Below are positions 5,190 to 34,848 of a stretch of 53,252 bases of DNA, piece after piece (position 1 is the first letter of the stretch; each line of letters starts with the position of its first letter). The notes under the pieces were generated by a model. The model did no database searches and was not told the DNA's origin. It saw nothing but the letters and a program-made list of their open reading frames with translations. Both the position numbers and the translations under genes were made by a program. Source of the DNA: Gammaproteobacteria bacterium (GTDB lineage: Bacteria; Pseudomonadota; Gammaproteobacteria; Comchoanobacterales; Comchoanobacteraceae). Location: positions 1 through 53,252 of the forward strand of contig JBDQHG010000001.1 of the NCBI GenBank assembly GCA_040264995.1, given 5' to 3'.

Positions 5190-6704
5190 ATGGCCGCACT
5201 AGCAAGAAAAGCATATAAGTACGTAAAGGATGTTTTAAAGGAAACAAGGTTCGGCTCAGAGTTCAAGTTCTCAAGCCATGTTATTTCGTATGGAAAAGGC
5301 TACCCTAGACCAATAAAAGTTAGCGCCTCTTGCCGTTATGGTGCTGGTTTAGTGCCCGGGTTTGATGCTGCCTCTAAATCTATATCGAGTTGGGCTGGGG
5401 CAGGGATTGGCACAGCAGAAAGCTTTGTCGTCTCATCTACGTTTGGTCTTGTGAGTTCAATAGAAAACACATATGAGCTTTACAACACAAACCTCCCCCC
5501 TCTTAGGACTAACATCCATGTTTTACCTACAAAAGTTGATGCAATAGCAAAGATTGAAGCAAGGTTTGGTGATTCTTCGCTCTTTAGAGACTTTGTGGTA
5601 GCAGCGGAGGACGCTAACATTAAAAAAGATAGTGATGTAGAAGGAACGCTTGCTCAAATGTTTTCTAGTTATCGTGCCAAAAGAGCCGTTATAGGCCTGC
5701 TAAGCCAGATTACAAAAATAATTTTTAACCTGCTTTGTTTGTTTGCGGAAGTGATGCTTTCTAGGTTCCTGGTTTCAACAGGGGTGTTTTTGTTGGTGCT
5801 TGGTTATACGGGATACATACTCAAGACTGCTAAAGAGCCAGCATCTACGGATAGTCATACTATTAGCATAAAGCTTAAATTGCTTCAGAGAAATCTGAAA
5901 AAGAAGCGCGGACTTTTAGTGCTCATGGGCGAAGAAAAAAAAGAAATCATCAAAAGTGAGAAATTGGTTCGTCAGGTTCGCTGGCTAGTAGAAAAAGGCC
6001 AAAATGCTGTTATTACTACAGCAAGCAGAGAGGAAAAAGAAGCATTTTTTGCTGAAGTTCGCAGTGCGCCAGAGCACCTTGTGCCCCGGTGGATCCAGGT
6101 TCTTTCCGAAGCGTACCATAGTAACGATGGTACTAAAAAAGAGGATGCACTAAACCGCCTTTCTTGTATTGATAACCTTGATGAGCATGCCAGTGGTGTG
6201 ATGGCTCGAATTAAAAAGCATCACGGGGTTGGTAATGTGATCATGCGAGAGGCGGTGCGCTTCCTAAAAGAAACCTTTCTGGAGAGTTGGGGCCCAGGAG
6301 GCATGATAGTCGCCACAGTGATTTACACAGCCCTTACTCTTATTGGAGTAGGGATGCCGTGGCTCCCAATAGCATTAGTGTTGCTCATGGTGGCTGCCAA
6401 GCCTCTCATTAAAAAAATTAACCAGAGATTTACGGAGCTCCTCTTGTCTATCTATATGTCTGGTTTTATGCGCCCAGTTCGAAGAGCCCTGCCTATATTA
6501 GATAAGATGATCGGAATTCAGGTTGTTAACAAGTTTGACTGTCACCCAGGAAGCTCCGAGGAGTATGATAAAAATAAGCATTTCCTGCAAGCATGCCTTG
6601 TCTCTGAAGGAAAAGGCGTGGCAGATAAAAATAAGCTGGATAGCTCGAAGTTCTTGGGTCCAGATACAGTGGCCAAAGGGATGATCACAATCCCGGCTGC
6701 ATAG
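5190..6704 (+). CDS. Orphan membrane protein (504 aa) with two hydrophobic hairpins; candidate effector
   Basis: Long ORF; ATG 5190 follows the consensus promoter; hydrophobic stretches IIFNLLCLF...GYIL and GMIVATV...MVAA separated by a Lys-rich helical region; no family recognised. Confidence 0.7.
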   Translation: MAALARKAYKYVKDVLKETRFGSEFKFSSHVISYGKGYPRPIKVSASCRYGAGLVPGFDAASKSISSWAGAGIGTAESFVVSSTFGLVSSIENTYELYNTNLPPLRTNIHVLPTKVDAIAKIEARFGDSSLFRDFVVAAEDANIKKDSDVEGTLAQMFSSYRAKRAVIGLLSQITKIIFNLLCLFAEVMLSRFLVSTGVFLLVLGYTGYILKTAKEPASTDSHTISIKLKLLQRNLKKKRGLLVLMGEEKKEIIKSEKLVRQVRWLVEKGQNAVITTASREEKEAFFAEVRSAPEHLVPRWIQVLSEAYHSNDGTKKEDALNRLSCIDNLDEHASGVMARIKKHHGVGNVIMREAVRFLKETFLESWGPGGMIVATVIYTALTLIGVGMPWLPIALVLLMVAAKPLIKKINQRFTELLLSIYMSGFMRPVRRALPILDKMIGIQVVNKFDCHPGSSEEYDKNKHFLQACLVSEGKGVADKNKLDSSKFLGPDTVAKGMITIPAA

Positions 6705-6759
6705 TTGTAAACGTTATGAACATTTAGCAGACTAGAGCTAGTAAAAAAGATAGGCATAA

Positions 6760-34400: not shown

Positions 34401-34848
34401 TTTCCTGCGCAATAAGGCCGGACTGTCCCTTAGTGTCCTTTAAAAGGGGTATTACAGGAAGTTTAATAAGGTTTTTAGGTAGAGAGGCGGCACTTTGATA
34501 GTGCTGTAGTGTTGTTTTTAGCACATTCTCTTGCTTGGGATGAGGGATGTCACTCGTAATAGCACTCCACGCTTGCTTAAAGGAGAGTGTTGGTAGGGGT
34601 AAATAGGAATTCCCCTCTGGAGAATAGTAGTCAGCAGCACCTAAATCCGCTTGGTATTCTAGGTTATAGTTAGTGTTCAGCAATGAGCGATATAGTTGCA
34701 GAAGCTCATCAACCAGCGCCTGTTGATGCTCTTTTAGCACCACTGCTGAGATAGCACCGTTTCGTACGAGTTCAGAGACTTTTAACCCTCCGTGTACTTT
34801 TGCATCTGGACCGACTTCCATACTTCCCCTTTGCGAACAACTCTCCAT
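31474..34848 (-). CDS. Large orphan protein (1124 aa), candidate effector
   Basis: Uninterrupted 3.4-kb ORF, helical-looking, no TM or signal peptide; tail RPTPPCPPPVEPP...SIIRKLFG. Confidence 0.8.
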   Translation of the reverse strand: MESCSQRGSMEVGPDAKVHGGLKVSELVRNGAISAVVLKEHQQALVDELLQLYRSLLNTNYNLEYQADLGAADYYSPEGNSYLPLPTLSFKQAWSAITSDIPHPKQENVLKTTLQHYQSAASLPKNLIKLPVIPLLKDTKGQSGLIAQEMATRKALKQSFISGKKPILPAAETITMASPICAAIFADVLTCFHMEKEILPAEKVARFLAHLEVLLPADQHSKLKTLLQPGSFGLLMNQLPQKVVVNPSERNPDLVQTQLKSDSHGRLQYKSLPHSQWIQNIRSTTSVFTQSEKLAVYVIICQNHGRCPFDDATVGTLLSIPGGLLFENLKSYFSAADMTPEEVQALLLSNCDFKTPQDLIQSPTFSRLFSSIATLADGGELDPTDLSEVLEDIESAIPAQAVSPQIMLAEFIFKHFLPTFKRNYNNWWPMFHASDVIGPQHSKALQVIQYVITHLDRNMLNSETKSNIVGPAIKEYVKRSRETQSISTEESQRLRDINPVTANLIINVLEKCNRNILTPAGRTHFTNMRMDANKFPVVEALLQEMIASAFLQFREDLIPIDFLGRSPALEPSSNPTITGVVDFLVRHGIALPKHLSDPDLHKASVAAYTTIVFSDNGSKTYTALASAYSQTAKKMVNSCMSNLRLKLKLGLGDLKIVLAMLAKLPADSNYRALEEIADSSNSSRSTFRYLLQPLVRILVSPASSSHIATQDNSLYWEESREHRFFNLGIDAAMQETSKRVSTEMTVTLAGSCKRYPLSMIEALAQRINGLWSPYRMTLSSSTIIRRPIGKKIHGLWTQGGVSLLSVFALKLLTKEPCASIPPALRQKLCDTGIIARNGSICEEVYRTVSVCFPDNDGMLSIMMLKIKAAYPEFIIPRKYRDILTTHQLLDESGHLVQHCHETLNTIIKIDTLNCNISIHPLPRQDQYLNVLLTPQIKHTSGYEEHKGAAAFRNINSGFVSALCAPHVLALRAWLSRACDAIAEPVCKIDNETVQAFWNSATSAGNLLTETDAYRGAEEHLQAFQGRGSRLGNPVSQVQSFLHTREGDDLAAQHQEHTAPPVDTPPLFGISAPTVATPAAVKDGQFASPEKLIGYLDPEIARPTPPCPPPVEPPGAASIIRKLFG

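Follow-up and report, generated by a model that had tools for sequence, protein, structure and literature searches.

Fast-evolving proteins with proline-ended tails as likely Dot/Icm effectors in a genome of the Comchoanobacteraceae

The stretch of DNA studied here (the window; 53,252 nucleotides) is contig C1 of a gammaproteobacterial genome of the Comchoanobacteraceae (G000; 950 kb in 81 contigs, 68.8% complete), and it is collinear with the corresponding regions of G001, a genome of the same genus, and G021, one of the same family. Housekeeping genes dominate it, which by recognition we take to be those for ATP synthase, glmS/glmU, efp/epmA, polA and tkt. Dispersed among them are eight poorly conserved genes that a first-pass annotation had read as orphan effectors aimed at ubiquitin and at SH2/SH3 signalling. 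Our analysis indicates that the fast-evolving lineage-specific proteins of this genome are probably effectors of a secretion apparatus of the Dot/Icm (type IVB) kind, that they include predicted ubiquitin-editing members, and that their tails likely serve mainly as export signal and not as SH3 ligands.

The evidence for an export signal comes from the extreme C-terminus. Proteins were classed by how high they scored per residue in BLAST comparisons with the two other genomes, which gave 136 lineage-specific proteins out of 711, 155 out of 783 and 167 out of 740 in the three genomes; the tail tests used stop-ended proteins of at least 150 amino acids (aa). In each of the three genomes, and whichever strand class is taken, the last 50 residues of the lineage-specific proteins are richer in proline and serine than core tails, and the bodies of these proteins are not enriched in proline. 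Strand bias can be ruled out as the source of the proline tails since the excess survives strand matching. Acidic residues (D/E) make up 5-8% of positions -1 to -6 in lineage-specific proteins (n=451) as compared to 14-19% in core proteins (n=1386), and the last residue is a proline in 12% versus 2%. A proline within the last three residues is present in 36 of 129 lineage-specific versus 30 of 411 core proteins, in 33 of 155 versus 26 of 490, and in 47 of 167 versus 30 of 485. Upstream, at positions -8 to -30, the D/E fraction is about 0.13 in lineage-specific proteins, about 0.11 in core proteins and 0.10 in the bodies of the lineage-specific proteins themselves, and in each of the three genomes it exceeds that of the own body (p 0.002 to 3e-6). 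When a positional model was trained on two genomes and applied to the third, the two classes were separated with an area under the curve (AUC) of 0.853, 0.816 and 0.803, and at a pseudo-terminus 60 aa upstream the values were 0.500, 0.485 and 0.462. In this genome, 68 of 129 lineage-specific proteins score above the 95th percentile, but only 2 of 13 chosen lineage-specific ordinary enzymes do so; four of five proteins with SidC, ankyrin or DUF4116 domains or leucine-rich repeats (LRR) score high, the LRR_6 protein being the one that does not. Accessory genes of gammaproteobacteria outside the Legionellales (108 versus 453) exhibit no terminus-specific effect (AUC 0.574 versus 0.609 at the pseudo-terminus). 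The type IVB signal outlined in the relevant sections of PMC12981334 and PMC11602083 is marked by small polar residues and by an extreme end that is poor in acid, with an acidic zone upstream of it. The earlier proposal that the tails may double as a secretion signal gains support from a terminus-specific signature that resembles this signal, and the proline-ended, acid-poor tail is likely a variant of it. A literature search for a C-terminal proline export signal returned nothing relevant among the matches listed.

Several points weigh against this interpretation. The open reading frames (ORFs) come from a simple script. Clustered E-blocks are not enriched (17/129 versus 80/411 in this genome, 40/155 versus 91/490 and 33/167 versus 82/485 in the others); according to the signal section of PMC12981334, not every known type IVB substrate has an E-block. 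Hydrophobic residues are barely raised over the last three positions (0.262 versus 0.249), with 32% versus 23% at -1 and no excess across -1 to -3. The acidic termini of core genes contribute part of the AUC, and terminal proline is nearly as frequent in lineage-specific proteins with a signal-peptide-like N-terminus, as assigned by a crude rule (8/39 versus 105/401). The outside control is made up mostly of Pseudomonas, had no filter for true orphans and covers only genes near atpD. Finally, the sequence that follows the stop codons is as poor in D/E as the last six residues (0.055 versus 0.061); the depletion of acidic residues alone could therefore arise by drifting stops, whereas the proline content (0.084 versus 0.038) could not.

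Seven of the eight window genes reach at least the 97th core percentile of the C-terminal score. The exception is the LRR gene (15th percentile), which had been counted as a member of the effector set and probably does not belong to this class. The loci are as follows (score, core percentile of the C-terminus).

5190..6704, plus strand: lineage-specific protein of 504 aa with four predicted membrane helices, a candidate transmembrane effector; tail without proline richness; score 99th percentile.
6760..7062, plus strand: N-terminal piece (100 aa) of the OTU-fold gene; Cys17 motif at 6808-6810; frameshift near 7051.
7091..7807, plus strand: C-terminal piece (238 aa) of the OTU-fold gene in another frame; aligned His at 7295-7297, long helix, proline-rich tail with RAIPLPP at 7739-7759; score 100th percentile.
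18045..19277, minus strand: 410 aa, four predicted membrane helices; syntenic homologue of 306 aa in G001 (23% identity); score 97th percentile.
20863..22203, minus strand: paralog A, 446 aa; hydrophobic hairpin at about residues 69-108 (two helices), proline-rich tail with KMTPPGP at 20965-20985; score 99th percentile.
23969..25093, minus strand: C-terminal piece of paralog B, 36% identical to paralog A; basic tail with PSKKRRSR at 24002-24025; break near 25093.
25086..25385, minus strand: N-terminal piece of paralog B, 46% identical to residues 1-93 of paralog A; one membrane helix detected.
25571..25699, plus strand: N-terminal piece of the LRR gene, 42 aa as read from the sequence; break near 25691.
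25683..26489, plus strand: main piece of the BspA-type LRR gene (Pfam LRR_5, E 4.6e-18); no C-terminal signature, score 15th percentile.
26536..26610, minus strand: tRNA(CAT), right edge of the 5.7-kb block 20863-26489.
28505..29071, plus strand: 188 aa, adjoining a second tRNA(CAT); QYATVDD (Tyr8, 28526), NVYDEA and terminal PPRPPR at 29051-29068; score 100th percentile.
31474..34848, minus strand: 1124 aa, fold unassigned; tail with RPTPPCP at 31528-31548; score 100th percentile.

All eight loci and the five motifs quoted for them are in place, but three of the genes are frameshifted and not all are orphans. The 6760 gene, 18045 and 31474 have syntenic orthologues in G001 at 22-34% identity, where the average gene has about 60%, and these three are thus fast-evolving and not orphan. 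The 31474 homologue has 1017 aa (22% over about 1000 aa) and lacks RPTPPCP, that of the 6760 gene aligns with 34% over 46 aa, and each of these two genes was found in one of 30 relatives. For 5190, G001 and G021 have ORFs at the same position that are alike in size and hydropathy, with a sequence similarity that is weak (E about 0.004-0.005 in a small set), and its product has no Pfam match above cut-off and no NCBIfam match. The 1124-aa protein has no Pfam match and its homologue no Atlas hit. Paralog A was found in none of 40 relatives, and the 5.7-kb block beside the tRNA gene, which holds both paralogs and the LRR gene, is absent at this position in G001. The proline-rich or basic tails that had been described for most of the set are clear in five of the eight (7091, 20863, 23969, 28505, 31474), partial in 18045 and absent from 5190 and 25683. 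Only the N-terminal sequences and their hydropathy were used to judge that the eight lack signal peptides.

An export signal calls for a machine, and the lack of any secretion gene in the window had been the main caveat of the first-pass annotation. This caveat falls with the discovery of a near-complete Dot/Icm locus on another contig, G000:C5, which carries two DotA-like genes, DotB, DotC, DotD, IcmT, IcmS, IcmQ, DotM, a DotL-like gene, two IcmL genes, IcmK, IcmE, IcmG, IcmJ and an IcmB-like gene. DotB, DotM (IcmP), IcmL (DotI), IcmT, IcmJ (DotN) and DotA/TraY pass the NCBIfam cut-offs, and DotC, DotD, IcmS, IcmQ, IcmK (DotH) and TrbI those of Pfam; IcmE (DotG; 709 versus 750) and DotF (92 versus 200) stay below their NCBIfam cut-offs. 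Of these, DotC, DotD, IcmK, IcmE and DotF belong to the outer-membrane core, and IcmS and IcmQ are effector adaptors. At the positions expected for the ATPase DotO/IcmB and the coupling protein DotL there are ORFs of 1010 and 762 aa with weak VirB4/TraC and TrbC/TraG-D_C matches. The Pfam DotA model had no match, but its control found nothing either. IcmK is present in 27 of 31 genomes of the family, and the type III/flagellar export gate FHIPEP was not found in the genome. The membrane parts of the machine appear to be expanded: there are four DotA-like paralogs, two on G000:C5 (64-6025, by NCBIfam) and two on G000:C22 (137-6429, by BLAST), as well as two IcmL/DotI and three small IcmD-like genes. 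Directly beyond the locus lies a gene for an Rce1-like CAAX protease (L089:14017-15351, G000:C5) whose C-terminus scores at the 97th percentile.

The machine could have another role, such as DNA transfer, and several of the window proteins could be ordinary envelope or inner-membrane proteins. The membrane helices in 5190, 18045 and paralogs A and B, the LRR gene without the signature, and the overlap of the DotA, DotL and IcmB matches with conjugation families would agree with this view. We nevertheless regard it as very unlikely: DotB passes the cut-off of the Dot/Icm equivalog and not that of the plasmid protein TraJ, IcmS and IcmQ are present, and relaxase PF03432 was not found, in a search of one family whose control gave a signal in 2 of 14 cases and in a genome that is 69% complete. 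Moreover, OTU and SidC-type proteins have no substrate in bacteria, and by the effector counts in PMC11602083 and PMC12981334 the share of membrane proteins among type IVB effectors is about a quarter to a third.

The predicted effectors include two candidates for ubiquitin editing. (i) The 6760 gene had been called OTU-like, and the fold was recovered on a structural model of P0128, a whole natural allele in the protein database, with cysteine and histidine kept. In a VIA-align search with this model the top 24 rows were all OTU or otubain structures, with Z scores of 9.7 for 7w54 (rmsd 3.8, 157 aligned residues), 9.1 for Ceg23, 9.0 for LotA and 8.4 for wMelOTU, and the first unrelated row reached 5.5. 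Foldseek ranked wMelOTU first. The Cys17 motif is invariant in seven of seven sequences at about 20-35% identity, a histidine late in the domain is aligned in the six database sequences that reach it, and the order of the two is canonical. An Atlas search gave a lead to OTU for the G001 homologue, for which a single-sequence model had a predicted local distance difference test (pLDDT) score of 35.7. Against an OTU enzyme speak the absence of an OTU match to the 6760/7091 product in Pfam, the moderate mean pLDDT of the P0128 model (56.6, with 81-87 over residues 21-60), the best Foldseek E value of 2.8e-3 with none at or below 0.001, and the residue two positions after the histidine, which is glycine in this species and D, S or Q in homologues. 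Sequence searches of solved structures found no OTU. In the window allele cysteine and histidine lie in different frames, so that the reading frame is not intact, but whole alleles exist in nature. Natural strains thus differ in this gene for a predicted deubiquitinase, some having a broken and others a whole copy. (ii) A Pfam scan of 141 of the 163 other poorly conserved proteins yielded 21 with any match and 120 without, and one of the matches is the SidC_N E3 domain (E 1.3e-44, residues 30-481) in a protein outside the window:

L237:6756-8663 (G000:C40), minus strand: SidC-type E3 ligase candidate, 635 aa; C-terminal membrane helix and proline-rich tail.

The cysteine and His-x-Asp positions of this protein align with those of SidC, whose catalytic triad is treated in a section of PMC7830128, and SidC_N occurs in 9 of 31 family genomes, in some of them in several copies. 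The proposed targeting of ubiquitin thus gains support from the OTU fold and from the SidC-type domain.

The three frameshifted genes are the 6760/7091 gene, paralog B (25086-25385 and 23969-25093) and the LRR gene (25571 and 25683-26489). An alternative genetic code can be ruled out, as all three stop codons are normally used (425 TAA, 248 TAG, 177 TGA) and the breaks are frameshifts. Assembly error is ruled out as well, since independent assemblies carry them. When contigs of four studies were compared over 6100-26099, four indels were found in these 20 kb: one is intergenic, three lie at the gene breaks, and none affects a core gene. The break in the OTU gene (near 7051) is present in two and absent in one of three covering assemblies, that of paralog B is present in three and absent in one of four, and that of the LRR gene is present in two and absent in two of four; over 27900-35000 no indel was seen among the compared assemblies. 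The frameshifts are therefore real alleles that segregate in wild populations. Over the first 210 aa, the whole OTU alleles P0128 and P0129 show differences at 24-38% of residues, as compared to 4% over the last 139. Together with P0127 they look mosaic, with 62-89% identity in the OTU domain and 96% in the C-terminal part, which suggests recombination or diversifying selection on the catalytic domain.

Broken alleles raise the question of whether the genes are simply decaying, with disordered tails as a by-product of relaxed selection and drifting stops and without any export signal. Three of the eight genes are frameshifted with the broken allele common, and nonsynonymous to synonymous single-nucleotide polymorphisms (SNPs) stand at a nearly neutral 20:8 in lineage-specific and 5:12 in core genes (p 0.012), among listed places that cover 40 of 163 for 6100-26099, which makes the ratio provisional. 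The raised amino-acid polymorphism of the lineage-specific genes also counts in favour of the effector reading. Among those listed, 18045 has five nonsynonymous and one synonymous SNP; 31474 has ten and six, with no indel. The terminal D/E content equals that of post-stop sequence, and a core gene, transketolase, also carries an in-frame stop at 45733. What makes simple decay quite unlikely, however, is that terminal proline is about double the level of the bodies and about double that of non-coding or out-of-frame sequence, and this in three genomes between which the tails do not align, that syntenic orthologues stay full length across species, that the Cys motif of the OTU domain has remained invariant at such low identity, and that just about 3 of 509 core genes genome-wide are visibly split, transketolase included. 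The transketolase stop is an in-frame TAG at 45733-45735; the gene is whole in G001 and G021, a pattern scan for the stop found nothing, and the stop may be either a sequence error or an allele.

The other half of the original proposal, that the set is aimed at SH2/SH3 signalling, fared less well. SH3 ligands follow the class I and class II consensus patterns [RK]xxPxxP and PxxPx[RK], and [ST]Px[RK] is the pattern of proline-directed kinases. About 23 patterns were tried, with expectations obtained by shuffling within tails. A class I/II PxxP pattern occurs in five of the eight last-50-aa tails of the window versus 1.7 expected (P about 0.008), in a set that was chosen after the motifs had been seen. 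Genome-wide, 15 of 129 lineage-specific and 5 of 411 core tails carry loose class I/II motifs, and the enrichment is retained with strand matching (8/79 versus 2/257 and 7/50 versus 3/154), the check that had been proposed along with the original reading. Class I, the type of three of the four motifs originally named, is at chance (5 versus 2.9 expected; 2 versus 2.0 without the window contig). Class II is raised (10 versus 3.1; 8 versus 2.1 without the window contig, p 0.002, in this genome only), but the shifted register PxxP[RK] is equally high (9 versus 3.1; 8 versus 2.1), [ST]Px[RK] is likewise raised (12 versus 5.1), and a strict hydrophobic class II pattern shows no enrichment (1 versus 0.8). 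There is no excess in G001 (4 versus 4.6) or G021 (6 versus 6.1). Six of the 18 non-core proteins with a tail motif have a G001 homologue, and none of the six keeps a motif; similarly, the OTU homologues P0123-P0125 and P0122 lack it, and the close alleles P0128 and P0129 retain it. RAIPLPP itself was rightly described as overlapping glmU in antisense, as 17 of its 21 bases lie on the last codons and stop of glmU, with which 7091..7807 overlaps by 65 bp on the opposite strand.

The tyrosine motifs give a similar picture: an EPIYA-like pattern is not enriched (13 versus 12.3 expected), nor are other tyrosine patterns save [ILV]Y[ADE]x[VILP] (33 versus 20), which is raised in core proteins too. 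PSKKRRSR is indeed present in paralog B, but NLS-like patterns are not enriched (5/129 versus 18/411 in core). On the side of eukaryote-like domains, the SH2 model had no match in 31 genomes with a silent control, and the models for SH3_1, tyrosine and Ser/Thr kinases, tyrosine phosphatase and U-box had none in this 69% complete genome, which does not show absence. With an excess that is unspecific to register and unconserved, the SH2/SH3 angle shrinks to one protein, the product of 28505, the best single candidate of the window set for a phosphotyrosine/SH3 scaffold. Its single homologue (54%) keeps Y-x-TVDD, with only the first tyrosine aligned, and lacks PPRPPR; EPIYA or ENIYE matches and tandem repeats were not found in the 28505 protein. 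In the frame upstream, window positions 28380-28504 hold 41 open codons without a start codon and with four tyrosines (SEYSP, PLYTG, TYYDA), perhaps a decayed tyrosine-motif extension; four assemblies have no indel there.

That the tails are nonetheless functional SH3 ligands and the tyrosine motifs SH2 ligands, so that the set targets phosphotyrosine signalling of a holozoan host, appears unlikely to us in view of class I at chance, the equal height of the shifted register and of [ST]Px[RK], the strict class II result, the lack of excess in G001 and G021, the loss of the motif in all six homologues, the EPIYA-like null and the antisense position of RAIPLPP. This explanation draws some strength from the loose motifs above core in both strand classes, from the PxxPx[RK] excess that persists without the window contig, from the conservation of Y-x-TVDD, and from the named relatives of this bacterium, which come from a choanoflagellate, a group rich in tyrosine kinases and phosphotyrosine-binding domains in the parts of PMC3082566 that deal with them. 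It does not conflict with export and could be true of individual proteins, most of all 28505. A literature search found no work joining choanoflagellate symbiont, effector and EPIYA. Better candidates for WW, SH3 or SH2 ligands than those of the window are encoded on G021:C1 (56588-58542, 76048-78150, 530438-532399 and 628596-630443), where lineage-specific proteins end in PPxY repeats, PPLPPK-type motifs or repeated GPVYDQ units.

The organism had been taken for a symbiont, and host association of the lineage is supported by its relatives: DotB shares 86% identity with its counterpart in Ca. Synchoanobacter obligatus and 72% with the one in Ca. Comchoanobacter bicostacola. The main account in PMC9418006 describes these two as living in obligate association with the choanoflagellate Bicosta minor and as having a Legionella/Coxiella-type secretion system together with ankyrin and LRR proteins. 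Marine, seawater and estuary metagenomes carry near-identical DNA, with at least half of the probe words in 14 of the 24 runs listed, four of which are possibly the source of the assembly; RNA runs contain only small shares of the probe stretch. A scan with atpD turned up no close relative.

How might the system work? We suggest that a coupling complex of DotL, DotM and IcmS reads the unstructured, acid-free, Pro/Ser-rich terminus and that the proteins are delivered into the cells of a eukaryote that is probably a marine protist. In this host, ubiquitin on the membrane around the symbiont would be edited by the OTU and SidC-like proteins, and the hairpin-bearing proteins may insert into this membrane. 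The individual effector would either not be needed or be turned over under pressure from the host, and this would account for both rapid divergence and segregating null alleles. It is tempting to go further and to speculate that the Comchoanobacterales use their own acid-free, proline-ended type IVB signal and, with a genome of 1 Mb, inject a choanoflagellate with some 70-100 effectors. These would include a writer and an eraser of ubiquitin and, in 28505, a CagA/Tarp-like scaffold of tyrosine and PxxP motifs engaging the SH2/SH3 network of the host, and segregating frameshifts would silence effectors in the manner of a gene-for-gene arms race. As a whole, this joint scenario is doubtful.

The secretion system of this lineage was known, and its cargo had been described merely by generic repeat domains. 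A transferable terminal signature offers a way to list candidate effectors among proteins without database match, and it gives the type IVB signal, which is poorly defined to date, a variant that can be tested. The OTU protein and the SidC-type ligase would extend Legionella-style ubiquitin manipulation to a marine symbiont lineage linked to choanoflagellates, and effector nulls that segregate in the wild could make host-symbiont coevolution measurable from metagenomes.

Some features lie apart from these subjects. Outside the set originally described, the window holds two more poorly conserved genes at 40040-41045 (153 and 211 aa) whose products look exported by the general pathway. A tRNA-Arg reported by ARAGORN at 42092-42176 lies within a membrane-transporter ORF and is probably spurious. 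Elsewhere in the genome, two short low-GC contigs (L234:413-3189 and L243:404-2765; G000:C71 and C77) carry phage-like genes for a B12-type ribonucleotide reductase, an HNH nuclease, a DnaB-like helicase and a YqaJ recombinase, and are a prophage remnant or mis-binned.

The closest known systems are those of Ca. Synchoanobacter obligatus and Ca. Comchoanobacter bicostacola (Comchoanobacterales, UBA7916), which share the genome size of about 1 Mb, the Legionella/Coxiella-type system, ankyrin and LRR proteins and the marine habitat. They are other species than the one studied here, and their described host is a choanoflagellate. The main account in PMC9418006 names proteins of the ankyrin, LRR, Sel1 and TAL types. 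It was not found to report a C-terminal signal, an OTU or SidC protein or null alleles, though its supplementary host-interaction table may list SidC or OTU. With the Dot/Icm signal of Legionella and Coxiella the tails have in common the acid-poor extreme terminus, the acidic zone upstream, the enrichment of serine and threonine and the lack of alignable sequence; they differ in that there is no clustered E-block excess, the hydrophobic end is weak, and proline is marked at -1 to -7 (12% at -1). Proline near the end has a role in some Legionella substrates. The descriptions of the type IVB signal in PMC12981334 and PMC11602083 make no mention of proline in their signal sections.

The bacterial OTU enzymes LotA and LotB/Ceg23 of Legionella and wMelOTU of Wolbachia, as presented in the OTU sections of PMC7396840, share with the 6760 product the OTU fold (Z 8.4-9.7), an N-terminal Cys motif and a histidine on a late strand. 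The predicted enzyme found here differs by an identity of 12-13%, the lack of a Pfam match, the variable residue after the histidine (G, D, S, Q) and its being broken in this assembly; its close alleles are far less alike over the OTU domain (76%, 62%) than over the C-terminal 139 aa (96%). The surveys in PMC7396840 and PMC12501173, as far as these extend, already include bacterial OTUs from Dot/Icm carriers whose hosts are unknown. Legionella SidC and SdcA (SNL domain) share SidC_N and the cysteine and His-x-Asp alignment with the G000:C40 protein, which differs in ending with a membrane helix and a proline-rich tail, in having no detected lipid-binding domain and in its patchy distribution in the family. 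The QYATVDD of 28505 is similar to the YATIDD of CagA. With the EPIYA-type effectors CagA, Tarp and Tir, as far as they are covered in PMC3593179, 28505 has in common that some of its tyrosines stand among acidic residues (QYATVDD, NVYDEA) and that it ends in PxxPxR, but it has neither EPIYA/ENIYE nor repeats, and there is no genome-wide enrichment. The general kind of system is known, and what is new is the proline-ended signature, the candidate ubiquitin enzymes in this lineage and the segregating nulls.

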